A DNA stretch of 64,000 nucleotides from a virus (IMGVR_UViG_3300022217_000228:9347-73346); one strand, 5' to 3'. Shown: positions 4,126 to 56,557, numbered from the stretch's first letter. The notes: generated by a model from the sequence alone, not told the origin. Numbers and translations: made by a program.

Positions 4126-5014
4126 AACCAAGATTGATAACTACAGCATATTTCCAGAACGACTTACTCTTGAGGAATGCGGGGAGTATCATTTCCATTA
4201 TCGGAGTATTCGCATCGCATTTACCAAGCATGAGTACAAGGATTTTATTAGTCTTACAAAGTATGATTCGAAAGACAAAAAGAAAATTTTTCTCAAAAAG
4301 GTTATGAGTTCAAATGGAGATGTGATAGACAAAAATCGTTTGGTAGTTGAGTTGAGTAAAAATACGTACATCAAACACAGGGACGACACAGCAAAAGAAG
4401 CGGACTTCTTTAAGGATAAAGCTTATATCCATGTTCATTATCGCAATATTAGATTAGAATTTCCTATCCATGAATTTATTCAAATAGCTCAAACCTTTGA
4501 TGAAGCACGAAAAGCATTACCACTAAAAACCGTCAACGACATGTTCTATGCTATTGACGATATCACATATGTTGTAATAAGAAACTTTGATAATTTGCCA
4601 AATTCAGTTAAGCTTGGACCGCACAGTGATTTGGATTTGCTATTTGCTTCAAGGCATGATGTAAATAAATTTATTCACATAACACATGCTGAAAAAACTT
4701 TCAAGGAAGAATATCGGGTACAGCACAAAGTAGCTATCGGAAAAGACTACATTCTCTGCGATTTACGGGTAATCGGTGACATGTATTTTCCGTTGCCTCT
4801 ATGCGTTGATATGATAAACATTCGGATTCGGCACAAATGTTTCTGGGTTCCATCAGAACCTACGCATTCAATAGCCTTGGCGTACCATGCACATATACAT
4901 AAAAAGCGCCTAACAAACGATTATCGCAAAAGAGTAAGGTATTCAAAATGTGATATACTGAATATGATTGAACCAACGAAACCTAAAGATAGATCTGTTG
5001 GATATAACCCATGA
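4097..5014 (+). CDS. Two-domain protein with C-terminal nucleotidyltransferase-like domain
   Basis: 'YVVIRNFDNLP...SDLDLLF' resembles the DxD nucleotidyltransferase signature. Confidence 0.45.
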   Translation: MGKVISQLAKTKIDNYSIFPERLTLEECGEYHFHYRSIRIAFTKHEYKDFISLTKYDSKDKKKIFLKKVMSSNGDVIDKNRLVVELSKNTYIKHRDDTAKEADFFKDKAYIHVHYRNIRLEFPIHEFIQIAQTFDEARKALPLKTVNDMFYAIDDITYVVIRNFDNLPNSVKLGPHSDLDLLFASRHDVNKFIHITHAEKTFKEEYRVQHKVAIGKDYILCDLRVIGDMYFPLPLCVDMINIRIRHKCFWVPSEPTHSIALAYHAHIHKKRLTNDYRKRVRYSKCDILNMIEPTKPKDRSVGYNP

Positions 5015-5538
5015 ATACATACGTTAAAAAAGAAATAGTACGATTAATAAAACAATACTATTCAAAGAACGAATTGAACGATACATCTTATAGGCTTCTC
5101 GATGTAGGATCTCTTGATATAAATGGAACCATTAAAAACAAAATACCGAAAGCATGGGAATATGTAGGAGCTGATATATTGCCTGGTAAGAATGTTGATG
5201 CTTTAATGCTTTATCCATTTAAACTTCCTTTTGATAATAACACGTTTGATTGCATTGTAAGTAGTTCGTGTCTTGAACATTGTACTAACCCATTAAAACT
5301 GGTACCAGAAATGGCGCGAGTTCTTAAGCCAAAAGGATATATGTTTATTGTAGCTCCATTTATATCTCCAAGACATGAGGTACAAGAGGATGGAACGATA
5401 CTGAAGGATTGCTGGAGATTCCTTCCGAATGGATTTGATTACCTTTTTGAAGCTGCCAATATAAAAAAATTGCATACATACAACCATAAACGAAAAGCCA
5501 ACAGAGTTTATTGCTGGGGAATAGGAAAAAAGGAATAA
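5011..5538 (+). CDS. Class I SAM-dependent methyltransferase
   Basis: 'LLDVGS', 'LPFDNNTFDCIVSSSCLEH', 'EMARVLKPKG'. Confidence 0.88.
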   Translation: MNTYVKKEIVRLIKQYYSKNELNDTSYRLLDVGSLDINGTIKNKIPKAWEYVGADILPGKNVDALMLYPFKLPFDNNTFDCIVSSSCLEHCTNPLKLVPEMARVLKPKGYMFIVAPFISPRHEVQEDGTILKDCWRFLPNGFDYLFEAANIKKLHTYNHKRKANRVYCWGIGKKE

Positions 5539-39658: not shown

Positions 39659-39791
39659 TTTCACAACGGTCCGCGAATATGTGCAGTGCTGGAGCCATCC
39701 GGCTTATTTACGCGCCTTTGGGCTGGTGCCGAAACCCGCATAATCCAACTTAGTAGCACAACCAGCATTGCATATATTCGCTGTTGTATGT
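39659..39791 (-). repeat. Solo attC-like site T
   Basis: (+) TTTCACAAC-GGTCC-GCGAATATGTGCAGTGCTGG ... CCAGCATTGCATATATTCGC-T-GTTGTATGT; same geometry as the array sites. Confidence 0.8.
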
Positions 39792-39916
39792 TGAAGGAGA
39801 TTTCCTCCATAGTGTAAAAGCGATATGTTAATTATTTTTCCCGGACGGAACGGCCTTATCCGATGTTCCGTATATTTGATAATTAACTCTCGGATGCGAT
39901 ATCGCATTACAACCAT
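39704..39916 (-). CDS. Solo cassette ORF (70 aa) reading into attC T
   Basis: AAGGAG RBS after GTTGTATGC cassette start; ends HTTANICNAG...KARK inside the hairpin. Confidence 0.5.
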   Translation of the reverse strand: MVVMRYRIRELIIKYTEHRIRPFRPGKIINISLLHYGGNLLQHTTANICNAGCATKLDYAGFGTSPKARK

Positions 39917-39940
39917 AAAAGAAATCTCCTTTTGCATACA

Positions 39941-39969
39941 ACTATATTAGTGTGAAATATATTATTCAA
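39941..39969 (-). promoter_or_regulatory. sigma70-like promoter TTGAAT-N17-TATAGT; -10 overlaps the G^TT cassette junction
   Basis: -35 at 39964-39969, -10 at 39941-39946, 17-nt spacer. Confidence 0.6.
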
Positions 39970-46643: not shown

Positions 46644-47624
46644 TTATGACAAAATCATTTCTGCTTCGACATAGGAAGCACGCAACTCAGAAACATGATT
46701 AGTCGTCATTTTCTTTTTTAATTCAGGAGTTATTTCTTTTCCGAGTTTTTTTAAATCGTCCAGAGATTCGCACAATACAATTCTCCCTTTGTATTTTTTA
46801 AGAATTGTGGTAGATTCAGACTCTTTTAGTGCGTCTTCTTTGGTTATTTGTTCGGCGTCTATTGCTGCTGTTTCATCTTCTGATTTCATGGCAGCCTGCT
46901 TACCGCCAAGAAGAGGAAGAAGTGGCTTGATAAGGTTGTCATAATTAGGCGAAATTATTGTACGACCTGATAGTATCCCGGTGCGATCCTTCTCAGCAAA
47001 TGCTGTGATTGATGCCAAACCACCCTTTTTGTCTTTAGTTGACTCCATGTGCATTAGAATGTGTGGCTCGTATGGTGTTTCACCTTCTGCCTTCATTTTA
47101 GTGCCAATGTTTTTTAATTCGCCTGTTTCTTCATCTTCTTCGAAGTCGTTGCCCTGTCGACCGCATATAATCACATGCATTGGAGAAGAAAGAAGGTAAT
47201 TGATTAATTCTTTATAGGGTTTTTTGATTTTTCCCCAAGCATGAAAAGGAATCGTACCTGCTGATGTAATTTTTCCTTTGTATGCCTGTTTTGACGCTTC
47301 CCAGATGTGAGTTATAGAGTCTATGATTATTATTCCATACTCATTTGGATTAAGTCCTTTTACGTCGCTAATTACTTCTGTAATGGAGCGGGTATAATTA
47401 GCATCAAAATCAAAGGCTCTCGGGTGTACTTTTCTTTCCTCCACATCCTTGCAGTAAAAATCTGTTCCACGCTCAGTATCAACAAATGCTATTCGTTTTC
47501 CGGTAAACGCTGCTAATCCTTCGGCACATAGGAGCGCCGTAAATGTTTTCCCGCTTCCTGATTTCCCATAAAAACCGATTTTTAATGCTGCTTGCTCTGC
47601 CTTTGCTTTTCTAAATCCAGCCAT
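46644..47624 (-). CDS. AAA ATPase, Sak4/AAA_24-like recombination protein
   Basis: Walker A GKSGSGKT, 'FVDTERG', Walker B 'IIIDSITH'; start MAGFRKAK. Confidence 0.8.
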   Translation of the reverse strand: MAGFRKAKAEQAALKIGFYGKSGSGKTFTALLCAEGLAAFTGKRIAFVDTERGTDFYCKDVEERKVHPRAFDFDANYTRSITEVISDVKGLNPNEYGIIIIDSITHIWEASKQAYKGKITSAGTIPFHAWGKIKKPYKELINYLLSSPMHVIICGRQGNDFEEDEETGELKNIGTKMKAEGETPYEPHILMHMESTKDKKGGLASITAFAEKDRTGILSGRTIISPNYDNLIKPLLPLLGGKQAAMKSEDETAAIDAEQITKEDALKESESTTILKKYKGRIVLCESLDDLKKLGKEITPELKKKMTTNHVSELRASYVEAEMILS

Positions 47625-47637
47625 AATTAAATCCCTT

Positions 47638-47772
47638 TCACCTATTGCATAATTGTAAATGGACAAATCTTTCTTTAATCTCACAAAACGATTTTACCCA
47701 CTGCTTATCAGATTTTCTTTTAACCACGATTCCACAGTGTACACACCTGTATTTTCTGATTCGTATTTTCAT
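47638..47772 (-). CDS. 44-aa ORF inside site Z (MKIRIRKYRCVHCG...)
   Basis: ATGA-coupled to upstream cassette ORF; CxxC. Confidence 0.45.
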   Translation of the reverse strand: MKIRIRKYRCVHCGIVVKRKSDKQWVKSFCEIKERFVHLQLCNR

Positions 47773-47787
47773 TGCTGTGTTATAGGC
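47640..47787 (-). repeat. Degenerate terminal attC-like site Z
   Basis: R''-like GCCTATAAC at 47779-47787 matches its cassette start (GTTGTAGGC), but stem and R' are eroded. Confidence 0.4.
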
Positions 47788-47957
47788 TGTTGGCAAGATT
47801 CCTCATTTCTTAAAATGCGAGGACAATCACCCTCTTCACAACGATGTGTTTCGTTAATTCTCGACAAACAAACATAGCCCAAATTACCCCCATGACAGCG
47901 TTCACGCGCATTACAAAACCATTTGAATTTATCGAAATCTTCATTTAATAGAAGCAT
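47769..47957 (-). CDS. Cassette ORF, Cys-rich 62 aa
   Basis: Ends QQPITQQ across R''. Confidence 0.55.
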   Translation of the reverse strand: MLLLNEDFDKFKWFCNARERCHGGNLGYVCLSRINETHRCEEGDCPRILRNEESCQQPITQQ

Positions 47958-47986
47958 TTTACTCCAATCGTTTTGAATTGCCTATT

Positions 47987-48123
47987 GCCTACAACGTTTG
48001 CGAAATGTGCGCCGTTAAAACCTATAGCCACAATGAGGACACGATTCAACGGTATCCACCTTGATTAACTTACGACAACCAGGGCACGGCTCTTTTAATG
48101 GCGCACTTTCTGCTGTTGATGGT
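47987..48123 (-). repeat. attC-like site A
   Basis: (+) GCCTACAAC...AAATGTGCGCCGTTAAAA / TTTTAATGGCGCACTTT...GTTGATGGT. Confidence 0.8.
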
Positions 48124-48299
48124 TGTGCTACGGGTTCCACAGTGTAATCAGCGCTCGACAGGAAATTTTCCAACCCTCGTAATTCTGCCTGTGCTGCCCG
48201 TTCACAACCGAGTTTAACTTCATTACCTGCTAATTGTTCAACAGCTATACTACTGGAAATAACCTTTAATCTGGACTCGATATATTCTGATAGTTTCAT
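48015..48299 (-). CDS. Cassette ORF with attC-encoded zinc ribbon
   Basis: ...STAESAPLKEPCPGC...CPHCGYRF. Confidence 0.6.
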   Translation of the reverse strand: MKLSEYIESRLKVISSSIAVEQLAGNEVKLGCERAAQAELRGLENFLSSADYTVEPVAQPSTAESAPLKEPCPGCRKLIKVDTVESCPHCGYRF

Positions 48300-48334
48300 A
48301 ATTGCGTTTATCCAATCTATTTAAGAGTAGCATT

Positions 48335-48511
48335 TCCACCAACGGACTAGGCATCCGCCCGAAGTTGCCGTTCTAAAAATTCGTGATACATTTCTGCCAT
48401 AAAAACAACATCATCTTTAATGCCACCTGCTCCAATTTCCCACAAATATTCAATAAATGATTCCTTATTGTCTTCCCATAACGGCAATTTTGGGCTGCCT
48501 GGGTTGGTGGA
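48335..48511 (-). repeat. attC-like site B
   Basis: (+) TCCACCAAC...GGCATCCGCCCGAAGTTGCCG / CGGCAATTTTGGGCTGCC...GTTGGTGGA. Confidence 0.85.
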
Positions 48512-48628
48512 TGCGTTTTCGACCTTAGTTAAAGCTTCTTTTATGCGATACCACGAATCAATAACTTTTTCTGGGTGACAAATATATTTAAAACTTGAGT
48601 CTATCGTTTTTATGTCATCAGTAAGCAT
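48347..48628 (-). CDS. Cassette ORF translating the whole of attC B
   Basis: STNPGSPKLP...RQLRADA; stop 4 nt before the crossover G. Confidence 0.6.
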   Translation of the reverse strand: MLTDDIKTIDSSFKYICHPEKVIDSWYRIKEALTKVENASTNPGSPKLPLWEDNKESFIEYLWEIGAGGIKDDVVFMAEMYHEFLERQLRADA

Positions 48629-48653
48629 AAAAGACTCCAATCAACTGAACGTT

Positions 48654-48731
48654 TCCACCAACGTCTTGGCATACCAGAAGTGCGTCAGCATTTGGGAGAG
48701 GCTTCCGAACCTGCTATTGTTTGTTATAGGC
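48654..48731 (-). repeat. attC-like site C (weak stem)
   Basis: (+) TCCACCAAC...GCATACCAGAAGT / GCTTCCGAACCTGC...GTTATAGGC. Confidence 0.65.
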
Positions 48732-48737
48732 TGTTTG

Positions 48738-49271
48738 TCAACCATCCTTATTATCCTTTTTGGAGGCGGTCTTAGCATTAGCACAAAAATCTAACCATCC
48801 TTCCTTATTACCTGTTTTCAAAAATGGCTCTGCTGCGGCTAATACCTGAAGCGCGTTCGTGTAATATGTAAGACCTTCTCCGTGACTGCCCCAAAGGTTA
48901 GTAATTCCAAGGCAGGAAGCTAACGCCGATATCGTTGCCCCATGAGCAGACTGTAGAACATCAGAGCCGTTTTTGAATATCCAATCGAGGTTAGATTTTT
49001 GTGTAGCTTCTTCTTTCTCCTCATTTCCCCATTGCTGCAATAGATCCATACGATCCGATTGAATTAATTCTAATTGTTGCTCGTAATACCATGACGATTC
49101 GCCTCTACCTTTTATATGAATGGTATATTGTTGCGATTCGCGTTTACCGCCTCCATATTGGTCTTTATATGACCCAATTACAATAGCGTAACAGTCTGAT
49201 TCAAAATGTGACATCGTGGGACCGAGGTCTTTTATTACGTGAACAAAGTCTCCTTTGTGATATTTTTGCAT
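48738..49271 (-). CDS. Cassette ORF, 177 aa hypothetical
   Basis: GGAGG RBS; N-terminal 'KYHKGDFVHV' resembles SH3-like phage proteins. Confidence 0.65.
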   Translation of the reverse strand: MQKYHKGDFVHVIKDLGPTMSHFESDCYAIVIGSYKDQYGGGKRESQQYTIHIKGRGESSWYYEQQLELIQSDRMDLLQQWGNEEKEEATQKSNLDWIFKNGSDVLQSAHGATISALASCLGITNLWGSHGEGLTYYTNALQVLAAAEPFLKTGNKEGWLDFCANAKTASKKDNKDG

Positions 49272-49312
49272 TAGTAGCCTCCAAAACTACAATATAAAAC
49301 GGTTGATAAATT

Positions 49313-49451
49313 GCCTATAACGGTTTGCGAAATGGCCGAAGTAGTGCACCCGCCGAAGCTCCCGTTGAGCTTGCACTGTTTATGTCGGGTTAGTGCGCGG
49401 CCCACGTCGGAAGTATCGAGTGCACTATTTTGACCTTTCGCTGTTATTGGC
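49313..49451 (-). repeat. attC-like site D
   Basis: (+) GCCTATAAC...GCGAAATGGCCGAAGTAGTGCAC / GTGCACTATTTTGACCTTTCGC-T-GTTATTGGC. Confidence 0.88.
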
Positions 49452-49653
49452 ATGTTGTTGCCGATTCTATAGCCAACTTTTTTCGCTGGCGTTTATATTT
49501 AATACCTTTCCAACTTGAACAAAATCCATCGCTACTAGTACGAGTATCCTGTAAATCACAGATACCAGGATTGGCGAATTTATCGTTTACCCATTTAGTA
49601 TACCAAGTACAAGAACCGCATCGTTTTTTATGTATCAAAGCGAAAAACTCCAA
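49444..49653 (-). CDS. Cassette ORF, 69 aa Cys-rich
   Basis: CGSCTWY...GICD...FCSSWK; stop TAA lies inside the R'' box. Confidence 0.6.
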   Translation of the reverse strand: MEFFALIHKKRCGSCTWYTKWVNDKFANPGICDLQDTRTSSDGFCSSWKGIKYKRQRKKLAIESATTCQ

Positions 49654-49672
49654 TTCTCAAGAGGCAATAATT

Positions 49673-49753
49673 GCCCATAACGTTCGATGCTACCAGACGT
49701 TTTAATGTTCCGAAGGACAAGCGTCAGCGCCGCTGGTAGCATTTGTTGGCTGC
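49673..49753 (-). repeat. attC-like site E
   Basis: (+) GCCCATAAC-GTTCG-ATGCTACCAG / CTGGTAGCAT-TT-GTTGGCTGC. Confidence 0.82.
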
Positions 49754-49941
49754 TGTGCAGCGTGTTCCGCCATTGCTGCGGCGCATCTATCGGAAAATCG
49801 ATTAAGCGCCGACAATACTCCAGGTTCCAAACAGATACGATCTGTAGGGTTTTCATGATCATTTGCATGTAACCAGATAGCGTATCCATCAAAAAGACCA
49901 TAGACACCATCTCCGAGATAATCTTTCATTACAAATTCCAT
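49702..49941 (-). CDS. Cassette ORF, 79 aa (MEFVMKDYLGDGVY...)
   Basis: Reads into attC E; also in frame with an upstream GTG ORF spanning attC F. Confidence 0.6.
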   Translation of the reverse strand: MEFVMKDYLGDGVYGLFDGYAIWLHANDHENPTDRICLEPGVLSALNRFSDRCAAAMAEHAAQQPTNATSGADACPSEH

Positions 49942-49975
49942 TGCGCCGCCTTTCTGTAAATTTAAGAGCTGCATT

Positions 49976-50078
49976 GAACACAACGTTTCCAGGTTTGGTG
50001 AAGTGCCGCGTGTTTTTGCGGCATTTGCCGAAGGCCGAAGTGAGCTTGCGAACGGAGCACCAAACCTGTGTTGTAAGC
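49976..50078 (-). repeat. attC-like site F
   Basis: (+) GAACACAAC-GTTTC-CAGGTTTGGTG / CACCAAACCTG-T-GTTGTAAGC. Confidence 0.85.
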
Positions 50079-50105
50079 TGTAAACCTGCCCCTGCCTTTT
50101 GCCTT

Positions 50106-50294
50106 TCACGCCGCCGCCTTCTTTTTGTTCTTTTTAAAATATTCCTTCAGTATCACGGATACTGTCTTGTTTCCCGATCTCTCATCCTCTTTCGCCTTTT
50201 TATCTATCATCGTCCAAAGGTTTGATTCAAGATAGATGCTTCGTGACGTCATTTGACTTGTTTTCATATTTTCATCTATTTTGGTGTAAGACAT
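50106..50294 (-). CDS. Ribbon-helix-helix (Arc-like) DNA-binding protein
   Basis: 'SRSIYLESNLWTMIDKKAKEDERSGNKTVSVILKEY'. Confidence 0.6.
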   Translation of the reverse strand: MSYTKIDENMKTSQMTSRSIYLESNLWTMIDKKAKEDERSGNKTVSVILKEYFKKNKKKAAA

Positions 50295-50661
50295 TATGAA
50301 ATATATAAGACTTCCTCTTGCCTTTGTCCTCACTATAAATATTGCTGCTATCACACTTTATTGGAATAGCAATCCAAAGATCATTGTTTTTGTCGGGTTT
50401 ATTATACTTATCCTGCAAAGTTGTATCGAAATGTTGAAATGTCTTACTATTGATATTGACAATTGGCTCAAGTTTAAACTGTATAGAATTGACATCAAGC
50501 TGCTTAGATATCCTTCCAAAAAGGAGAAATACGATGCAAAAGAGAAGAACTATCGTAATAAGGCTAACAGGAGAGTAGTATTCGCTGAACCTGTCTTGAT
50601 AATACTGCAAGTCACGGTTTGTCTCGGTACCTTGTTTATTCTCTTTTGGGGAGCTATTCAT
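50272..50661 (-). CDS. Single-TM membrane protein
   Basis: AGAGG RBS; TM segment LITIVLLFCIVFLLFG. Confidence 0.45.
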   Translation of the reverse strand: MNSSPKENKQGTETNRDLQYYQDRFSEYYSPVSLITIVLLFCIVFLLFGRISKQLDVNSIQFKLEPIVNINSKTFQHFDTTLQDKYNKPDKNNDLWIAIPIKCDSSNIYSEDKGKRKSYIFHNVLHQNR

Positions 50662-50851
50662 TTTTCCTCTATTTTTTAACCTCATCATGCACTATTAAAT
50701 AATGTTAAAAATGATTATTCTTTTCAGTATGAAAACGTTGCTTCCTGGCTATCCGAGAATTATTAATAGCCATTGTTATCATTCATTTTATATTCCTTTT
50801 TATTCTAACTTGTCTTTCGGCGGCGTCTTCCTGTCTTCGGGCAGGTTTTTT

Positions 50852-50984
50852 GCTTACAACGGGTTGCCGCACTCGCCAGCAGTACCCCACCGGAATAGTT
50901 TGCATTACCGGCAGCCTCGCACTTCTCGAACGTAGCGATCTCGTCCCAGAGCTTGAGGTATTGCTGGCTGCGGCTGTTGTACGA
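50852..50984 (-). repeat. attC-like site G
   Basis: (+) GCTTACAAC...CCGCACTCGCCAGCAGTACC / GGTATTGCTGGCTGCGG...GTTGTACGA. Confidence 0.82.
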
Positions 50985-51119
50985 TGTAAAGTGAGCTTCC
51001 TTAGTGTAAGCACAATCCAGCTTCGGAAGAAGTCTAATTTCACTTTTTGAAAAGTGCTACGACTTGAAAGTCCACTGTTTGGTTTAATTGTGCTTATTAA
51101 CATGAAAGCTCACTTTATT

Positions 51120-51264
51120 TTGTACAACGGCTTCAGGCACCCGCCTGCCGTGGCCGATAGAAATCGTCTGCATCTCGAATACAATGATTTGCACCTAAAA
51201 GGCAACACTGCCCCTTTTTATTATCACAATCGTCAGGACATGGCAGGCTGCCTGGGTTAGAAGC
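51120..51264 (-). repeat. attC-like site H
   Basis: (+) TTGTACAAC...GGCACCCGCCTGCCGTG / CATGGCAGGCTGCC...GTTAGAAGC. Confidence 0.82.
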
Positions 51265-51456
51265 TGTGGGCTGGGTTCCGCTGCCTTTTGAAATTTTACG
51301 AAGTAACGTACCACCAAACATTAACGGATAAACACCTACAGCTTGCCCGGCATATAAAAAACTACACTTCCCAGGCTCCTTCAACTCTATTACAACCACA
51401 TCACCGACTTTAGAGTATCCGTTACCAGCTTCTCTATATCCCGGTATATTAATCAT
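51133..51456 (-). CDS. Cassette ORF translating the whole of attC H
   Basis: GGAGG RBS; ...ASNPGSLPCPDDCD...PRQAGA. Confidence 0.6.
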   Translation of the reverse strand: MINIPGYREAGNGYSKVGDVVVIELKEPGKCSFLYAGQAVGVYPLMFGGTLLRKISKGSGTQPTASNPGSLPCPDDCDNKKGQCCLLGANHCIRDADDFYRPRQAGA

Positions 51457-51492
51457 AGTAAAATTTCCTCCAATAAATTTAAGAGTCGCATT

Positions 51493-51650
51493 GCTTCTAA
51501 CGTTTGCGAAACGTGCGCCGTTACTTGAAACACGGTTTATTAGCATAACAATGTAGATTTTTATTTTTAATAGTACATTCATCATAATAACAACACGGCC
51601 TTGCGCTCCATTCTTCGTATTCTAATGGCGCACTTTCTGCTGTTGGATGC
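51493..51650 (-). repeat. attC-like site I
   Basis: (+) GCTTCTAAC...GCGAAACGTGCGCCGTTA / TAATGGCGCACTTTCTGC-T-GTTGGATGC. Confidence 0.85.
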
Positions 51651-51820
51651 TGTTGCTCGGCGCTCCCCTTGCCCTGCCGGGCTTCACCGCAGTACAATTC
51701 CATAACATCAGATACGTATAAATATCCACGCTTATCCCCATGAAAAGCTACCTTCACACTATTTAAACATGCATCGTTTAACTTATTATCGATTAAAAAC
51801 TTCTGTTCCTTAGATCCCAT
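51521..51820 (-). CDS. Cassette ORF reading through attC I
   Basis: ...HPTAESAPL...CCYYDEC...PCFK. Confidence 0.6.
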   Translation of the reverse strand: MGSKEQKFLIDNKLNDACLNSVKVAFHGDKRGYLYVSDVMELYCGEARQGKGSAEQQHPTAESAPLEYEEWSARPCCYYDECTIKNKNLHCYANKPCFK

Positions 51821-51865
51821 AAAAACTACCTTTTACCCGGCCTTTAACATGGCCGCCGAGCAATT

Positions 51866-51948
51866 GCCACCAACGGGTTGCAAAACGTATTTAGTGCGGT
51901 ACGCTCTCATACTGCCTCACCGCGTTGAATACTTTTGCTGTTATGGGC
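51866..51948 (-). repeat. attC-like site J
   Basis: (+) GCCACCAAC...GCAAAACGTATTTAGTGCGG / CCGCGTTGAATACTTTTGC-T-GTTATGGGC. Confidence 0.85.
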
Positions 51949-52622
51949 TGTAGCGCCCGATTCCTTATTTAAAACCGCAATGAGCTGTTCTCCGAGAAAC
52001 TGCGTGTAAGCCGGCGGTATAGCTTGCGTTAACTCTTTCCTCGTCATCCAATCTATGCCCATTGCGTTTCTCCACTCAATGACACTTCCCTTTGAGACAT
52101 CACGCATGACTGTCCCCCATGTTTTCCAACGACCTGCACCACCGGCAACAGAATAATAACCCTCTCCGATACGGCGACCGCGGTGTGATGGATGAGGAGG
52201 AATAAAAAAAAATGACTACAATCAAAATGGCGATGTCTGAAAACTTTTAAACCGAACATTAAACCACATAGCGTTATTGACTTATCAAGCGGAGCGCCTG
52301 GCACGTTTTCAACTACATATGGTATTCCAATTTTTTTTAATTCCGCAAGTGTCGGCGTAAGGTAATCAATATATTTTTTACCTCTGTTACGATGGACATT
52401 GGAAGCAATTGACCATTTCTGACATGGGGGAGAGGCATGTACTACATCGAATTCGTGATGATGATCCCGGAGATATTCCAGTGCATCAGATTGGATAAAC
52501 TCAAATGGATACCGTTTTTGAAAAACAGTATCGACACCTACGATCTGAGTAAAGCCGGCCCTGAAATAACCCTTCGCTGCTCCACCTCCACCACAGTACA
52601 AATCTAAAAGTTTCCAGCTCAT
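51907..52622 (-). pseudogene. C5 DNA cytosine methyltransferase-like cassette gene, frameshifted at a T9 tract
   Basis: 'LLDLYCGGGG', 'HASPPCQ', 'YVVENV', 'RHRHF'; C-terminal 'MGIDWMTRKELTQAIPP' continues in another frame after 52204-52212. Confidence 0.8.
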
Positions 52623-52652
52623 TGCCTATTTATTCTCCAAGAGGGCGGTATT

Positions 52653-52779
52653 GCCTATAACGTCTGATAAACGGGTGAAGTGTCTACCGGGTTTTTCGGC
52701 ACACACCGAGAGGGCTGCCACCTTTGACCTCATAGTATTCATTTGTAGAATCACATTTCACCCTTTATTTGTTGTGTAT
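52653..52779 (-). repeat. attC-like site K
   Basis: (+) GCCTATAAC-GTCTG-ATAAACGGGTGAA / TTCACCCTTTAT-TT-GTTGTGTAT. Confidence 0.8.
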
Positions 52780-52891
52780 TGGTTTTGCGCTTCCGCCATT
52801 TGGCAAAAACGACACACCAACACCATAACATATTTTTAGAATACTCAGTTGCTTCTTTACAGCCTATACACGGACACTTATCTTTTGCCAT
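52751..52891 (-). CDS. Cassette ORF, 46 aa Cys-rich
   Basis: GGGGA RBS; MAKDKCPCIGC...TNTQQIKGEM. Confidence 0.5.
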   Translation of the reverse strand: MAKDKCPCIGCKEATEYSKNMLWCWCVVFAKWRKRKTNTQQIKGEM

Positions 52892-52913
52892 ACAATCCCC
52901 AAAAGCAAAACTT

Positions 52914-53099
52914 GTACACAACGGTTTAGCAAGGCAGAAGTTTGCGACTACAATATGGGCAAAACTGCATACCGTCAATTGACAAAATTGATTGTACCAA
53001 TTCACCACAAGATGTATGAAAAAATCCACCATGCTCATTTTCCTTAATTTCCCACTCGCAAATTTCCGGAGGCGAAAGCTGCCTTGCTTTGTTAGCGGA
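52914..53099 (-). repeat. attC-like site L
   Basis: (+) GTACACAAC-GGTTT-AGCAAGGCAG / CTGCCTTGCT-TT-GTTAGCGGA. Confidence 0.82.
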
Positions 53100-53270
53100 A
53101 TGTAATGCGAGTTCATTAGCTTTTAAGGCGGCAACTATTTCCCGGTGAAAACCACCAAAAAGAGTTCTAAAATATTCACCCTTACCGTCTATCGATAAAT
53201 CAGATATTGCAGTGTTCAAGTAAGCTCCGAGCCTACCATTCCCTGGATCGCACATATTTGATATATCCAC
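52926..53270 (-). CDS. Cassette ORF with attC-loop-encoded Cys domain
   Basis: ...SANKARQLSPPEICEW...TSCG...FCPYCSRKLLPC. Confidence 0.6.
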   Translation of the reverse strand: MDISNMCDPGNGRLGAYLNTAISDLSIDGKGEYFRTLFGGFHREIVAALKANELALHSANKARQLSPPEICEWEIKENEHGGFFHTSCGELVQSILSIDGMQFCPYCSRKLLPC

Positions 53271-53307
53271 TTATTGCCGCCTTTATAATAAATCTAAGAG
53301 CATTATT

Positions 53308-53391
53308 TCCGCTAACGGATTGGCAAAGAGCCGAAGTGCGGTACACTCTCATATTTACTTACCCGCATTTTGGCTTTTGCCTGTTAGCGGT
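53308..53391 (-). repeat. attC-like site M
   Basis: (+) TCCGCTAAC-GGATT-GGCAAAGAGCCGAAGTGCGG / CCGCATTTTGGCTTTTGCC-T-GTTAGCGGT. Confidence 0.88.
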
Positions 53392-53406
53392 TGTTTTGAC
53401 CGCATC

Positions 53407-53724
53407 CTAATTATCCTTTCGGCGAACGGCGGTTACACACTCTCGATACTTAACCATCCAATCGCCACAGTCTTCATGTGCCCACGGATCATCTTTATAC
53501 TGTTCGTACAAGATGGAATCATGTTTCTTTAAATCATCTATAGTTGCATTATAGGCAAGAGGACAATCCCATGAATTACAGCATCCTGGCTCCTGCTTGT
53601 TCTTGAATTTAGACGCACAACCATAACCGCCGTTTGGTATATTATCACCTGTACAAAATAATCCGCATTCTCCAGATAAATTATCAATGTCTATTAAAAC
53701 TGGTACTATGTTTCTATATGCCAT
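53407..53724 (-). CDS. Cassette ORF, Cys-rich hypothetical
   Basis: GGAG RBS; 'GECG...GYGC...GCCNSWDCPLA'. Confidence 0.6.
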   Translation of the reverse strand: MAYRNIVPVLIDIDNLSGECGLFCTGDNIPNGGYGCASKFKNKQEPGCCNSWDCPLAYNATIDDLKKHDSILYEQYKDDPWAHEDCGDWMVKYRECVTAVRRKDN

Positions 53725-53767
53725 ATTTTCTCCAGTGAGCCGAACTACAATCTCAGCGGTCAAAATT

Positions 53768-53932
53768 GCCGCTAACGGTTTAGGTTAAAAGAAGTGCCGC
53801 CATAAAGCAGCGTTACATTCTATACCACCACGCGAAAGGCAAAAGCTGCATCCAGCTACCGGACATTCGGAACATGAGGGCGGCATTTGCGGAGCCGTAG
53901 CGTTAGCGGAGCTTTTAACCTTTGTTGTGTGG
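53768..53932 (-). repeat. attC-like site N
   Basis: (+) GCCGCTAAC-GGTTT-AGGTTAAAAG / CTTTTAACCT-TT-GTTGTGTGG. Confidence 0.8.
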
Positions 53933-54156
53933 GCGCTTCGCCGGACTGGTTTTGTTGACTCCACATTATCCAGTGATTCTATGAAAGCTGCTACTTGACG
54001 CAAGCAATCGGGACGCCACCAAGTTAGATCGTCGCTTATTAGACACCACCTTTTCTTTCGGCTTACCCACTCTTTATGTATACGGCCGATTGCAACTGTA
54101 CGATAACCAAAAACTGTAAACCCTTTATCGTCCGCTTCTATTTTTAGAGCTTTCAT
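53785..54156 (-). CDS. Cassette ORF reading through attC N
   Basis: ...SAHTTKVKSS...CSECPVAGCSFC. Confidence 0.6.
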   Translation of the reverse strand: MKALKIEADDKGFTVFGYRTVAIGRIHKEWVSRKKRWCLISDDLTWWRPDCLRQVAAFIESLDNVESTKPVRRSAHTTKVKSSANATAPQMPPSCSECPVAGCSFCLSRGGIECNAALWRHFF

Positions 54157-54187
54157 AAATCACCTTTAATATGGTTCAACAAAACTT

Positions 54188-54334
54188 GCGCACAACGTCT
54201 CAGGCACCCGCCCGAAGTTGCCGACACAGTTCATCGTAAAACTGCTGAGTTACCCACCTATGACGATCCTCTGCACCAGTAGCCTCAAACATCTCATCGT
54301 GTGTCGGCAATTTTGGGCTGCCTGTGTTGGTGGA
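54188..54334 (-). repeat. attC-like site O
   Basis: (+) GCGCACAAC...CAGGCACCCGCCCGAAGTTGCCGACAC / GTGTCGGCAATTTTGGGCTGCCTG-T-GTTGGTGGA. Confidence 0.88.
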
Positions 54335-54451
54335 AGTAAATTTTTCCTCCACCAGTTTTTTTATGCGGCCCCAAGCCTCCATCGGCCACAATTTGCCATA
54401 GCTAATGACCGCCTCTTCAACATCGGTAATATCCCCTTTGGTTATAAGCAT
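54200..54451 (-). CDS. Cassette ORF translating the whole of attC O
   Basis: STNTGSPKLP...RQLRAGA; same attC-derived peptides as 48347-48628. Confidence 0.6.
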   Translation of the reverse strand: MLITKGDITDVEEAVISYGKLWPMEAWGRIKKLVEEKFTSTNTGSPKLPTHDEMFEATGAEDRHRWVTQQFYDELCRQLRAGA

Positions 54452-54480
54452 ATACTACAATCTCCAGAGAAAAATTTATT

Positions 54481-54647
54481 TCCACCAACGGATTGGCGAT
54501 AACAGAAGTTACGCCGGTTGATAATTACTAAGACAATCTACCGAATTAATTTTCCACATACAATTAAGACCACCAACGCATCGTGAACAATTAGGCGTAA
54601 TTTCCCCTTCGGGCAAGGCTTCCGCCGTGTTATCGCCTGTTGTAAGC
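54481..54647 (-). repeat. attC-like site P
   Basis: (+) TCCACCAAC-GGATT-GGCGATAACA / TGTTATCGCC-T-GTTGTAAGC. Confidence 0.82.
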
Positions 54648-54844
54648 TGTGCTGACGCTTCCCCTTGTTCTGAGTTTGGCACCTCACGGGCAGGGCAATT
54701 ACTCGGTGGTAACATTGACGGGGCAATATCACATGTTTTTCCAGTACACCGTAACTCATCGGATCTTAACCCGCATTCGTCGGTATCACAACACCACCAT
54801 GGGCACTGCCCTACCGTAGAAAAGAAAACTATCGTATACTTCAT
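54509..54844 (-). CDS. Cassette ORF, Cys-rich, reading through attC P
   Basis: AGGAG RBS; QCPWWCC...PSNCP; tail CSRCVGGLNC. Confidence 0.6.
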   Translation of the reverse strand: MKYTIVFFSTVGQCPWWCCDTDECGLRSDELRCTGKTCDIAPSMLPPSNCPAREVPNSEQGEASAQLTTGDNTAEALPEGEITPNCSRCVGGLNCMWKINSVDCLSNYQPA

Positions 54845-54878
54845 TTGACAAACTCCTATGTTCTCAAAAGGAGGCATT

Positions 54879-54959
54879 GATTACAACGTGCTTGCGTTAA
54901 GTAAAGTTGCCTTAGCAATTTGGGAGAACGGAGCGAACTACTTAACGCATGTTGTAAGC
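54879..54959 (-). repeat. attC-like site Q
   Basis: (+) GATTACAAC-GTGCT-TGCGTTAAGTA / TACTTAACGCA-T-GTTGTAAGC. Confidence 0.88.
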
Positions 54960-54991
54960 AGTTCTCTACCGCTCCCCTAATTCAGCGAGGC

Positions 54992-55132
54992 TCACCCCCG
55001 CCAGATACTGCAATCCCATCTCGTTTTATATACTTGTTCGATGGTATCTTCTACTTCCAGTTCGTATATATCTTCGTACCCGCAACGAGGGCACTTTGTA
55101 AATCTTCGTTTCCGCTTTATAGTTTCTTTCAT
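54992..55132 (-). CDS. Cassette ORF, 46-aa zinc ribbon
   Basis: GAGG RBS; MKETIKRKRRFTKCPRCG...; read by hand. Confidence 0.5.
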   Translation of the reverse strand: MKETIKRKRRFTKCPRCGYEDIYELEVEDTIEQVYKTRWDCSIWRG

Positions 55133-55168
55133 TTCAGCCTCGCCTTATAATATGGCCGGTAGATAATT

Positions 55169-55248
55169 GATTACAACGTTAGCGCACAGCCGATGCAGTA
55201 CGCTTACCTGCCTTGCCCGACTGTTTCGGCTTGCGACGTGTTGTTGGC
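55169..55248 (-). repeat. attC-like site R
   Basis: (+) GATTACAAC-GTTAG-CGCACAGCCGA / TCGGCTTGCG...GTTGTTGGC. Confidence 0.78.
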
Positions 55249-55494
55249 TGTAAAAAGTGTTGATACCGCAGATTTCAAGCGGGTTGCTGACTTGCGCTCA
55301 CTTAACCATATGTTAAATACAAGCACATCGACTTCTTGGGTTGTCCACCGCTCCTTACAATCAACACACATCTTACGCCTCCTTATGCTATCAAAGCCCA
55401 TTATTTTAGACTTTCGCGAATCCATAACATAAATTTTAGTACCATCACAATTAGGACATTGTGTTGATGAAGATCCGTCAATAACATTCTTCAA
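55204..55494 (-). CDS. First cassette ORF: NrdR-N-terminal-like zinc ribbon
   Basis: CPNC...VMDSR...SIRRRKMCVDCKERWTTQE mirrors the NrdR pattern CPxC...VxDSR...IRRRRxCxxCxxRFTTxE. Confidence 0.7.
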   Translation of the reverse strand: MKNVIDGSSSTQCPNCDGTKIYVMDSRKSKIMGFDSIRRRKMCVDCKERWTTQEVDVLVFNIWLSERKSATRLKSAVSTLFTANNTSQAETVGQGR

Positions 55495-55533
55495 AGCAAG
55501 CCGCCTTTAATATGTTTTTCAACACTTTTTATT

Positions 55534-55563
55534 GCCTACAACTAGACGTTATGTGAAATATAC
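55534..55563 (-). other. attI-like site (or collapsed attC) at the head of the array
   Basis: (-) TATATTTCACATAAC-GTCTA-GTTGTAGGC: inverted core boxes with a 5-nt spacer and no hairpin. Confidence 0.55.
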
Positions 55564-55809
55564 ATCTCTATTTTTAATGTATTTAGGCGTAAATTGATCT
55601 AGATACTTATCGTCAAAGATTCGTTTTCCGTTCTTATCTTTAAGTGTTTTTAATTTTTCGATCCCGGCTATCAATAGAAATCTACCAGCAGAATGTTTCG
55701 ATCCCTGGTGCCCATCAACAACAGGGTACACCCTTTGAGATTGAAGGTAGCACAATTTTCGGAATTTTTCACTGCACGTTACATGTAATCCTTGTTTATG
55801 ATTATTCAT
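55549..55809 (-). CDS. 86-aa hypothetical protein, probably leaderless
   Basis: ATG lies 7 nt after the -10 box; stop TAA lies inside the attI-like box. Confidence 0.6.
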   Translation of the reverse strand: MNNHKQGLHVTCSEKFRKLCYLQSQRVYPVVDGHQGSKHSAGRFLLIAGIEKLKTLKDKNGKRIFDDKYLDQFTPKYIKNRDVYFT

Positions 55810-55810
55810 A

Positions 55811-55845
55811 TGTATAATTATACACCTAAAAAGTTAAAAAGTCAA
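55811..55845 (-). promoter_or_regulatory. Strong sigma70-like promoter TTGACT-N17-TATAAT with 14-bp palindrome over the -10
   Basis: -35 at 55840-55845, -10 at 55817-55822; palindrome TGTATAATTATACA at 55811-55824. Confidence 0.8.
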
Positions 55846-55938
55846 TAGTTATTTTAATCCAATCGTAATTTCCAGTATTTATAATGCGTACTACCAAGCT
55901 AATTTAGCTCTGTATATTATACTCAGTCATTTTCAAAT

Positions 55939-56166
55939 TTAACCGTAGCCGGAGCCGGAGCCGTAGCCGGAGCCGGAGCCGGAGCCGTCGCCGTCGCCGT
56001 AGCCGTAGCCGTCGCCGTCGCCGGAGCCGTAGCCGTAGCCGTAGCCGTAGCCGTCGCCGTCGCCGGAGCCGTCGCCGTAGCCGTCGCCGTAGCCGGAGCC
56101 GTCGCCGGAGCCGTAGCCGGAGCCGTCGCCGGAGCCGTAGCCGTATTTAATATTAATTTTGTTCAT
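55939..56166 (-). CDS. Gly/Ser/Tyr/Asp low-complexity protein (GYGSGDG repeats)
   Basis: Tandem CCGTAG/CCGGAG/CCGTCG hexamers at about 55943-56143. Confidence 0.7.
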   Translation of the reverse strand: MNKINIKYGYGSGDGSGYGSGDGSGYGDGYGDGSGDGDGYGYGYGYGSGDGDGYGYGDGDGSGSGSGYGSGSGYG

Positions 56167-56557
56167 TTGGTTTCAACTCCATAATAGTTTTAAACGCTTC
56201 ATCAGTACAAATTGTCATTGAATAATCCTCAATTATCACTTTGTCGTCGACTGTTCCTGATACTCTAGAATCTGATGATATACCAGATACTGCAACCCCT
56301 TCATACCATGACAATGAGTTATCTTTTGGTTTGTGATACCATATGCGCCGACAGTTTGATAATTCTACACCGGTATTATCGGCGATAACGACAATTCCGG
56401 CGTTAATACCTTCATTGCGACTTCTAACAATAACCTTTTTGCCGATCATACGAGTTGCTACAGATTCCTCACCGGTGAAATTAACTACTTCTTTTTTCAC
56501 AGAATCCTCACGAACGTATTTAACATCATTTACCATAAGTGTTGTTGGTTCTGACAT
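56153..56557 (-). CDS. Phage protein of the type that typically precedes Gly-rich repeat ORFs
   Basis: 'IGKKVIVRS...AG...ELSNCRRIWY...VAVSG'. Confidence 0.6.
   Translation of the reverse strand: MSEPTTLMVNDVKYVREDSVKKEVVNFTGEESVATRMIGKKVIVRSRNEGINAGIVVIADNTGVELSNCRRIWYHKPKDNSLSWYEGVAVSGISSDSRVSGTVDDKVIIEDYSMTICTDEAFKTIMELKPNEQN

Follow-up and report, generated by a model that had tools for sequence, protein, structure and literature searches.

A probable orphan array of integron-like gene cassettes in a phage genome

Introduction

Gene capture and reordering is classically the work of integrons, found on bacterial chromosomes, plasmids and transposons and thought to depend on the recombinase IntI. 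About 8 kb of the complete phage genome described here (circular assembly, 73 kb in total) is a row of 19 small cassettes on the minus strand (positions 55563 to 47779 of the window, the 64,000-nt stretch of DNA that was analysed). A sequence-only reading of this DNA had recognised the architecture of an integron attC array, or CALIN, and knew of no such array residing in a phage. Clusters of attC sites in phage genomes are, however, published for TJE1, PH101, P12002L and others, being mostly of the canonical type with 2 to 4 sites, and 16 attC sites were found in a Vibrio prophage carrying a piece of a host integron (Qi et al. 2023, PMC9892861). No paper on the phage cassette system described below was found in the literature. 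We suggest that the region is an orphan array, without recombinase, of an integron-like phage cassette system, a reading to which we assign a probability of roughly 0.7.

Results

Eighteen imperfect hairpins with AAC and C-GTT boxes and one hairpin-less head site delimit 19 single-gene units (Table 1), each with one co-oriented ORF and a ribosome-binding site; unit c12 (876 nt) holds two ORFs, one of them RHH-like. Translation runs through the unit's own hairpin in about 10 of the 19 ORFs. The cargo is phage-type, with an NrdR-like zinc ribbon (c0), a C5 DNA methyltransferase (c8), the RHH-like protein (c12) and a UPF0547 zinc ribbon (c17), matching the zinc ribbons, DNA methyltransferase and RHH protein named in the sequence-only reading. 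Apart from the TTGACT-17-TATAAT sequence upstream of the array, the coding strand has no strong promoter-like site. Promoter-like and terminator-like sites show no excess over chance, and no T runs are found 3' of the hairpin stems. One strong promoter reads the entire array, and the ORF and promoter scans agree with the earlier picture of about 19 co-oriented, mostly promoterless units. The 86-aa ORF between promoter and array head was considered as a recombinase remnant, and this was rejected.

The motif CGTT-R-NNNN-[CA]A[AT]N has 18 matches between positions 55178 and 47996 of the minus strand, with a single AGTT version at 55543, the array head. The remaining 56 kb of this strand contain seven matches, one of which (39668) closes a solo cassette. 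The base before GTT, described earlier as an invariant C, is C in 18 of 18 array sites and A only at the head site. The sites measure 74 to 182 nt from AAC box to GTT box, a range similar, though not identical, to the 78 to 186 bp given before, and the asymmetric spacing reported for the 18 hairpins is confirmed: on the coding strand, AAC is followed by 1 to 2 nt and the stem, and the returning stem by 4 to 5 nt (C included) and GTT. Extra bases are almost confined to the coding-strand 3' arm (29 versus 6), and a 4-nt bulge lies opposite no unpaired base. The R stem has at least 15 bp with a fixed 2x2 internal loop, and protein tails are encoded in loops that reach about 130 nt.

Folded as bottom-strand DNA, 10 of 12 tested sites are matched in stability by no more than 5 of 200 shuffles (z -2.3 to -5.5), followed by site c8 (z -2.1, 8 of 200 shuffles) and the weak site c15 (z 0.2). 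A strict structural scan of both strands of the 73-kb genome yields 14 matches compared with 0.86 +/- 0.92 in shuffled sequences, all located in the main array, the solo cassette (39942-39668) or a satellite array of two cassettes outside the window, and none outside these cassette loci. The Rfam search gave no match for the hairpins. A count of covariation in the basal stem is partly circular because the sites were selected by folding.

Table 1. Features of the cassette array and of the solo cassette, in window coordinates
Feature	Position	Strand	Remarks
Near-consensus sigma-70 promoter, TTGACT-17-TATAAT	55817..55845	-	upstream of array; 11/12 consensus matches
86-aa ORF	55549..55809	-	between promoter and array head; stop codon within head motif
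Array-head (putative attI-like) site	55531..55563	-	no hairpin; TATATTTCACATAAC-GTCT-A-GTTGTAGGCAAT
attC-like site c0	55171..55246	-	cargo NrdR-like zinc ribbon, 96 aa
attC-like site c1	54881..54957	-	46-aa zinc-ribbon-like ORF
attC-like site c2	54483..54645	-	122-aa Cys-rich ORF continues through site
attC-like site c3, family B	54190..54332	-	arms 97-100% identical to L063, L107, L127, L157 sites
attC-like site c4	53770..53930	-	
attC-like site c5	53310..53389	-	non-coding; fold z -5.5
attC-like site c6	52916..53097	-	
attC-like site c7	52655..52777	-	
attC-like site c8	51868..51946	-	cargo C5 DNA methyltransferase, split at T run
attC-like site c9, family A	51495..51648	-	arms same as c17
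attC-like site c10, family B-like	51122..51262	-	Cys-rich tail encoded in loop
attC-like site c11	50854..50982	-	
attC-like site c12	49978..50076	-	closes 876-nt two-ORF unit
attC-like site c13	49675..49751	-	
attC-like site c14	49315..49449	-	
attC-like site c15	48656..48729	-	weak fold; cargo 177-aa protein, >100 metagenomic homologues
attC-like site c16, family B	48337..48509	-	cassette paralogous to c3
attC-like site c17, family A	47989..48121	-	UPF0547 zinc ribbon encoded in loop
Lone AAC box CCTATAAC	47779..47786	-	pairs with start of last cassette c18; hairpin-less array end
Solo cassette	39661..39965	-	outside array; head motif, A-GTTGTATG start, 70-aa ORF, attC-like site

One head motif precedes all three cassette loci, namely the main array, the solo cassette and the satellite array, and the base before GTT is A at heads and C at internal sites. 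What the sequence-only reading had called an eroded site is instead this conserved hairpin-less head, with no decayed hairpin. Similar hairpin-less heads follow the recombinase genes on three related contigs (L164, L166 and L107).

The AAC box of a cassette is complementary to the cassette's own 5' start and not to the adjacent GTT box (permutation P<1e-5, with 0 of 100,000 permutations reaching the observed sum). In the 12 nt next to the box, the count of paired positions is 8.5 for the own start and 4.7 for the adjacent box, and over 9 nt the own start scores higher in 14 cassettes, ties in 4 and scores lower in none. The AAC box of the solo cassette (CATACAAC) likewise matches its own start, and the homologous cassette on contig L005 carries compensating changes, having GTTGTGGG / CCCACAAC versus GTTATAGG / CCTATAAC here. 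This own-end pairing is the trace that circular cassettes would leave on insertion at GTT, and the pairing of the inverse core with the own 5' start in the permutation test is the pattern expected of a crossover at G^TT.

Transition mismatches in the stems read as G.T when the bottom strand folds and as A.C when the coding strand does, by 20:6 in this array, and the same preference for G.T wobbles on the non-coding strand is 48:5 in a further 34 sites, all from other phages (p 7e-10). The invariant A after AAC, opposite the invariant C before GTT, follows the same G.T-on-bottom-strand pattern. Folding both strands, as proposed in the earlier reading, gave a divided answer: the bottom-strand folds mostly beat shuffles and the wobble asymmetry favours bottom-strand pairing, whereas overall fold energies show no bias between strands.

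This circularly assembled genome has no gene for a tyrosine, serine or HUH recombinase, and the profiles TIGR02249, PF00589 and PF01797 (HUH Y1 transposase) have no match in it. The earlier proposal that the phage uses cassette recombination, with which the own-end pairing, the three head-motif loci and homology breaks at GTT agree, thus requires an enzyme in trans. On related contigs (L107, L127/L164 and L166), a Xer-like recombinase gene lies directly upstream of, and co-oriented with, the array. The alignments of these recombinases to TIGR02249 fall into two parts, leaving out profile positions of about 176 to 236, and score 114 and 149 bits, below the cut-off of 265; the IntI-specific insertion is absent, and the two types are only 29% identical to each other. 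Contigs P0120 and P0126 have the same gene layout as the recombinase-bearing array contigs. Most complete array-bearing genomes have no tyrosine recombinase.

Arrays built from this site family are present on at least 10 further contigs of uncultivated phages, among them genomes of 168 and 213 kb, with hairpin arms identical between this phage and some of these contigs and 97-100% identical between unrelated cassettes. The array adjoins recombination genes, AAA_24/Sak4-like here and RecT on relatives. When 185,579 species genomes were scanned with a family-B arm, the only hits were two short MAG contigs, of which one carries the Xer-like gene, and no chromosomal integron was among them; a blastn search of the hairpins against 50,697 phage records gave no match. 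Contigs L127 and L166, whose recombinases are 88% identical, have no cassettes in common, their homology ending at the head-site GTT. The neighbours of the c15 gene differ between L004 and L005, and L008 and L009 carry the gene but no sites. Breakpoints among related phages, suggested earlier as a check, hence fall at GTT for L127 and L166, whereas the c15 homology with L004 stops right after AAC. At the level of assembled contigs, no cassette circle, deletion or reordering was observed directly. A sharp GC jump at the recombinase/array border on L107 and L166 could indicate foreign cassettes, and the single contig L107 may be a chimeric assembly.

Two junctions lie on the AAC side and are not explained by a G^TT crossover, namely the c15/L004 end and the end of the array at the lone AAC box.

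Discussion

Each unit consists of a GTT-leader, a ribosome-binding site, an ORF and an AAC box, followed by an imperfect hairpin with C as its last base. It would once have been a circle, in which the AAC box would pair with the GTT start of the same cassette into a stem of at least 15 bp below the hairpin. The non-coding strand would fold, and a tyrosine recombinase would probably cut it at AA^C, corresponding to G^TT on the coding strand, joining the circle, in the manner of IntI in integrons, either to a head site (TATATTTCACATAAC-N4-A-GTT) or to a further cassette site. The enzyme for this on related contigs would be the small Xer-like recombinase whose gene immediately precedes the head site. 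This phage may have lost its recombinase or never had one, and any present-day shuffling would therefore need an enzyme from the host or a co-infecting phage. We hold it slightly better than an even bet that an integron analogue of their own operates in tailed phages with genomes between about 50 kb and jumbo size, in which a small Xer-type tyrosine recombinase without the IntI domain captures and reshuffles single-gene cassettes at a dedicated head site via mirrored sites folded from the bottom strand, drawing on a pool common to unrelated phages, with orphan arrays, such as the one here with three entry sites, being serviced in trans.

Several features recall integrons and CALINs: co-oriented single-gene cassettes, mostly with no promoter of their own, follow one promoter, imperfect hairpins are closed by AAC and GTT boxes, the bases of the GTT box past the presumed crossover go with the next cassette, the wobble asymmetry points to the bottom strand, a putative hairpin-less entry site stands at the head, and on related contigs a tyrosine recombinase lies beside the array. 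The region might accordingly be a true CALIN, whose divergent attC sites are recombined by a host IntI and whose cassettes are exchanged with a chromosomal integron of the host. The boxes, bulged bases, bottom-strand bias and own-end complementarity fit this explanation, as does the finding that IntI1 recombined 5 of 6 phage-borne attCs (Qi et al. 2023, PMC9892861). We nevertheless regard it as unlikely. Compared with the attC geometry of the aadA7 bottom strand (Qi 2023 Table S3, PMC9892861), the bulges are on the bottom-strand 5' arm beside the cut box instead of the 3' arm, with spacers of 1 and 5 nt in place of 5 and 6. Every array-adjacent recombinase lacks the IntI insertion, whereas IntI has an extra domain, and these genes are co-oriented with the cassettes, whereas intI is divergent from them with Pc in or near it. 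The arm scan met only the two short MAG contigs and no chromosomal integron. The long R stem with its fixed 2x2 internal loop, the loops coding for protein tails and the phage residence with phage-type cargo also differ from integrons. The published phage clusters resemble the array in having hairpin sites between phage genes, no integrase and DNA methyltransferases among the cargo, but the TJE1 site has the canonical attC design and the P12002L sites, unlike those here, read AAC-6-stem...stem-3-GTT on the coding strand, and the published account includes neither a recombinase dedicated to these clusters nor a head site or a phage-wide family (Qi et al. 2023, PMC9892861). The attC/CALIN architecture seen in the sequence-only reading thus holds for the cassette array without recombinase and its own-end pairing, whereas bulges and spacers are mirrored and the relatives' enzyme is Xer-like. 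Since the geometry is unlike attC and the relatives' enzymes have no IntI helix reading extrahelical bases, single-strand recombination is an analogy here.

Homologous recombination between conserved repeats is another explanation, in which the hairpins would be punctuation giving microhomology to phage recombination proteins, with no site-specific enzyme. The model has been proposed for the PeSL (promoter-early stem-loop) cassettes of T4-type phages, where small ORFans in plastic regions are bracketed by conserved stem-loop repeats, as here, and modular shuffling through these repeats is proposed (PMC2839356, PMC4122927). The neighbouring recombination genes, the near-identical arms of unrelated cassettes, the junctions at both AAC and GTT and the lack of a tyrosine recombinase in most complete array-bearing genomes would suit such a process. 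It is improbable in our view, leaving unexplained the covariation of AAC box and own start, the bottom-strand wobble bias, the hairpin-less head motif at three loci and the recurrent upstream recombinase. Moreover, PeSLs are promoter and terminator motifs on which homologous recombination acts, an early promoter and a terminator stem-loop flanking each cassette. The cassettes here do not carry such motifs individually, and AAC/GTT boxes, own-end pairing and a tyrosine recombinase linked on relatives set the present system apart. The hairpins could also act at the RNA level only, for example by terminating or attenuating transcription, by providing sites for RNase III or other processing, or by coupling translation along a long polycistronic early transcript; 19 co-oriented genes served by one promoter, with hairpins at gene ends and leaders that pair with the ORF end and could gate ribosome-binding sites, are consistent with this. 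Mismatches that read A.C in the transcribed sense but G.T on the opposite strand, the stems without T runs or Rfam match, and the solo and satellite cassettes at a common head motif, linked recombinases and GTT breakpoints, which it does not explain, make this the least likely alternative, and a very unlikely one.

The orphan-array reading places integron logic in a complete phage genome and many uncultivated phages, with a different site design and, on relatives, a different enzyme. If active, the system would explain how phages assemble and exchange small early-region ORFans, likely host-takeover and anti-defence genes, and would be a second, independent system for folded single-strand recombination by tyrosine recombinases, offering compact new recombinase/site pairs testable as tools. 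If the integron-analogue reading is true, single-strand cassette recombination evolved, or persisted, outside the IntI lineage.

Xer recombination offers further comparisons. XerCD acts on the folded single-stranded attP of CTX-phi, and the pdif modules of Acinetobacter plasmids are genes bracketed by inverted Xer sites. Both depend on host dimer-resolution enzymes and 28-bp dif-like sites and, unlike the system here, have no hairpin-bounded single-gene cassette arrays with a dedicated head site. The 28-bp Xer/dif site used by XerC/XerD (two 11-bp arms, 6-bp centre) is only loosely resembled here, the head reading ...ATAAC-N4-5-GTT... and the two unpaired spacers summing to 5 to 7 nt.

Genome and Array Layout

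The 19 single-gene cassettes (c0 to c18) form, judging from their sequences, an orphan array of a variant integron-like system. The enzyme of this system, on the contigs that encode one, is Xer-like, and its activity in the phage is putative. The 73,346-bp IMG/VR virus record, of which the window covers bases 9347 to 73346, has a CheckV completeness of 96% and encodes the portal, large terminase, and tail spike of a tailed phage. The genome is essentially complete, since a separate Logan contig (73,066 nt), assembled from the sole run in which the sequence occurs, shows a circular permutation against the record. The contigs of this sole available run, a sediment metagenome, were compared with positions 47000 to 56500 and reveal neither variants nor joints within it, a comparison of contigs only and so neutral on mobility.

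The genes of the array region lie on the minus strand, and every one of the 19 units contains a single co-oriented ORF that has a Shine-Dalgarno sequence. A sigma-70 promoter with 11 of 12 matches is located upstream, and the other promoter-like sites and the terminator-like sites in the array are no more frequent than expected by chance, which bears out the sequence-only reading of co-oriented, mostly promoterless genes below one strong promoter. No T runs follow the hairpin stems on the 3' side. Just upstream of the array promoter, a stretch at 55973-56115 has a contig depth of about 1276, compared to 19 elsewhere, and the Logan contig ends meet there; it may be a repeat common to many other sequences or represent the genome ends.

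Features of the array and of the further cassette loci (window positions unless stated otherwise)
Feature	Coordinates	Strand	Description
Array promoter	55845-55817	-	sigma-70 promoter
Main head site	55531-55563	-	putative attI-like array entry, no hairpin
Array	55563-47779	-	c0 to c18
c0			NrdR-like zinc ribbon
c8	51907-52622	-	C5 DNA methyltransferase, split at T run
c12			RHH-like protein
c17			UPF0547 zinc ribbon
Array end	47786-47779	-	lone AAC box
Solo cassette	39661-39965 (cassette 39942-39668)	-	outside array; after head-motif copy, just before next gene's start
Two-cassette satellite array	genome 4585-5275 (cassettes 4603-5266)	+	outside window, ~4.1 kb before its start; same head motif

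Hairpin Sites

An imperfect hairpin precedes each cassette boundary, and the sites span 74 to 182 nt from the 7-nt box ending in AAC to the 7-nt box beginning with GTT. The motif CGTT-R-NNNN-[CA]A[AT]N has 18 matches within 55178-47996 on the minus strand, with a single AGTT version at 55543, compared to seven matches in the remaining 56 kb of that strand. The sites were surveyed by scripted scans. The strict definition required AAC plus 0 to 3 nt, 6 bp of stem free of mismatches, a 0- to 3-nt bulge, pairing at four of the next five positions, 3 to 6 unpaired nucleotides ending in C, and GTT. On both strands of the whole genome it yields 14 matches, all 14 inside cassette loci, versus 0.86 +/- 0.92 in block-shuffled genomes, so the hairpin-divided array with AAC and GTT boxes is real. 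A loose hairpin scan (7-nt arm, one mismatch) was uninformative, with about 2 matches per kb everywhere.

When folded as bottom-strand DNA, 10 of the 12 sites tested were matched in stability by at most 5 of 200 shuffles; for the c8 site, 8 of 200 shuffles were as stable, and the c15 site folded no better than its shuffles. The Rfam search gave no match, and RNAalifold found no consensus for 27 aligned short sites because their stems are out of register.

Pairing of Cassette Ends and Proposed Crossover Side

For each cassette, the bases just 5' of the AAC box were compared with the cassette's own start (the bases after its opening GTT), with the adjacent GTT box, and with every other start. 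Within a 12-nt stretch, the own start accounts for 8.5 paired positions, against 4.7 for the adjacent box and 4.4 for other starts, and none of 100,000 permutations reached the observed own-start sum. Over 9 nt, the own start pairs better than the adjacent box in 14 cassettes, equally in 4, and worse in 0. The pairing extends over at least 15 nt and includes a fixed 2x2 internal loop, in which GC-AA-T in the start lies opposite A-CA-GC before the AAC box. A c15 homologue on another phage contig (L005; 63% protein identity) carries compensating changes in both boxes. The own-end pairing is the pattern that would be expected of a former circular cassette, its ends joined in one stem below the hairpin and opened at GTT.

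By itself, the own-end pairing does not discriminate a cut at GTT from a cut at AAC, and four observations favor the GTT side. The paralogous cassettes c3 and c16 have both the ORF and the downstream hairpin in common, as does the pair L127_70 / L157_76 of other contigs. The base preceding GTT is C in all hairpin sites and A in three of three head sites, limiting to the hairpin sites the invariant C proposed from the sequence alone. Finally, the array-bearing contigs L127 and L166, whose recombinases are 88% identical, lose DNA homology at the head-site GTT and have no cassette in common. Two junctions do not fit a cut at GTT: the homology of c15 to contig L004 (86% DNA identity) stops directly after AAC, and the array itself ends in a lone AAC box. 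The homologous ORFs that could be matched to upstream versus downstream hairpins are too few to decide the crossover side.

Head Sites and Further Cassette Loci

The array starts at a site that the sequence-only reading had called eroded and that reads TATATTTCACATAAC-GTCT-A/GTTGTAGGCAAT. The solo cassette and the satellite array are each preceded by the head motif TATATTTCACA...AA-N2-4-A/GTT, and the genome therefore has three putative entry points of one kind, which are hard to explain without site-specific insertion. The organization of the main head recurs on L005 (6730-7075), where a consensus-like promoter and a small ORF (80 aa) are followed by the head motif GTATTTCGCACTACGCAT-A/GTT and then by cassettes. 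The small ORFs before the heads of L005 (80 aa) and of the window (86 aa) have no apparent relationship. The solo-cassette head overlaps a promoter-like TTGAAT-17-TATAGT sequence. The satellite array lies in the packaging and glycosylation region, on the strand opposite to the main array, and its second hairpin resembles that of c2.

Probable Folded Strand and Site Design

The two arms of each site were aligned for counting bulges and mismatches. On the coding strand, the 3' arm has 29 extra bases versus 6 in the other arm; the corresponding counts for 34 sites from other phages are 34 and 11. Transition mismatches are mostly A.C on the coding strand, equivalent to G.T on the other strand (20 versus 6 of the reverse type), with the same bias in the 34 other-phage sites (48 versus 5; p 7e-10; 28 sites versus 1). 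The invariant A after AAC, opposite the invariant C before GTT, is likewise an A.C on the coding strand. So selection probably keeps the non-coding strand paired, a finding that speaks against a structure formed in the mRNA and resembles the bottom-strand rule known from integrons. This strand preference is confined to mismatch types; whole-site fold energies show no strand bias.

The predicted bottom-strand fold has an R stem of 8 pairs that is separated by a 4-nt bulge from 6 bp; a second bulge, of 1 or 3 nt, and a long stem follow, and every unpaired feature is on the 5' arm. The bottom strand of the aadA7 attC has two extrahelical bases on the 3' arm and spacers of 6 and 5 nt (Qi et al. 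2023, PMC9892861), so the design here is mirrored rather than canonical. The sites of Polaribacter phage P12002L, a published phage attC cluster, differ again in layout. The earlier suggestion of an integron attC array is thus upheld for cassette-array function, by the own-end pairing and the threefold head motif, but not for membership among classical integrons or canonical attC sites, given the mirrored design and, on related contigs, an Xer-like enzyme without the IntI-specific segment.

Clusters of attC sites in phage genomes are not new, since IntegronFinder applied to 10,705 phage genomes gave 3 integrons, 1 lone integrase, and 17 attC clusters, mostly of 2 to 4 sites, and IntI1 recombined five of six phage attCs (Qi et al. 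2023, PMC9892861). Our full-text literature search found no description of a phage cassette system that has sites of this design together with a head site and an Xer-like recombinase.

Recombinases on Related Contigs

Searched in six frames over its full length, the genome yielded no tyrosine recombinase (TIGR02249; PF00589 with E values up to 1), serine recombinase, or HUH Y1 transposase, and tblastn with an array-linked recombinase gave no trace in the whole genome. The 86-aa ORF before the head was rejected as a recombinase remnant. Complete array-bearing genomes mostly do not carry a tyrosine recombinase either. On L107, L127/L164 (a MAG contig), and L166 (93.5 kb), the array is directly preceded by a gene of 284 to 298 aa that has the same orientation and is followed by a head site; the contigs of the homologues P0120 and P0126 have the same layout, as judged from gene order. 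These recombinases score best to XerA-type models, yet below cut-off, and align with the IntI model as two separate stretches, the IntI-specific segment being absent. The L164 type groups with a clade of homologues (identity of at least 50%), has DPANN XerA-like proteins as next relatives, and is only 29% identical to the L107 type. The tyrosine recombinase of L003 was rejected as array linked, being of a generic type, 1.7 kb past the array, and 20% identical to that of L107.

The GC content jumps from about 25 to 35% to 41 to 54% exactly at the border between the recombinase plus head site and the array (L107:10226-11152, L166:5142-6030), and both arrays are 15 to 25 GC points above the phage backbone. 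This is as expected for cassettes from a foreign pool, with a chimeric assembly being possible for the single contig L107.

Distribution of the Site Family

DNA patterns derived from the sites were used to find further arrays and revealed the family on L003 (6 sites), L063, L100, L107, L109, and L037, and in two genomes with terminal repeats, L015 (213 kb, at least 20 sites) and L040 (168 kb). The c15 protein homologues led to L004 and L005-L007. Unrelated cassettes from different phages have hairpin arms that are 97 to 100% identical, whereas their loops differ. Megablast and blastn searches against 50,697 phage records returned a methyltransferase fragment only, and the relatives reached through the AAA_24 gene (L001 and L002; 60 to 70% identity) have no array at the corresponding position. 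Scanning a genome collection with the arm of family B, the arm type of c3 and c16, gave 42 matches, 40 of them by chance; the two MAGs with real matches hold no further arrays.

Cassette Cargo

No family match was obtained for most of the cassette proteins. A stretch of about 10 T near 52205 divides the c8 methyltransferase into frames of 189 and 66 aa, which could be a frameshifted pseudogene, a homopolymer assembly error, or a slippery switch. For the c15 protein (177 aa), metagenomic homologues number more than 100; some occur in arrays with other neighbors (L004 and L005), and some are tightly packed ordinary genes without sites (L008 and L009).

About 10 ORFs are translated through their own hairpin, with Cys-rich tails encoded in several of the loops. 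In c3, c16, c9, c17, c10, and others (48015-54451, minus strand), the arms encode the conserved peptides NTGSPKLP ... RQLRAGA-stop and TAESAPL ..., the intervening loops encode variable, often Cys-rich tails, and the stop codons fall in the 3' spacer, 2 to 19 nt before GTT. The same DNA is therefore both a putative recombination site and coding sequence.

The c12 unit (876 nt) contains an AT-rich segment at 50270-50860 that is open on both strands, with 138 aa on the minus and 127 aa on the plus strand, both membrane-like in appearance. The plus strand has a promoter-like site at 50253-50282 and a terminator-like hairpin at 50830-50845, and this cassette may carry an inverted, self-expressed gene.
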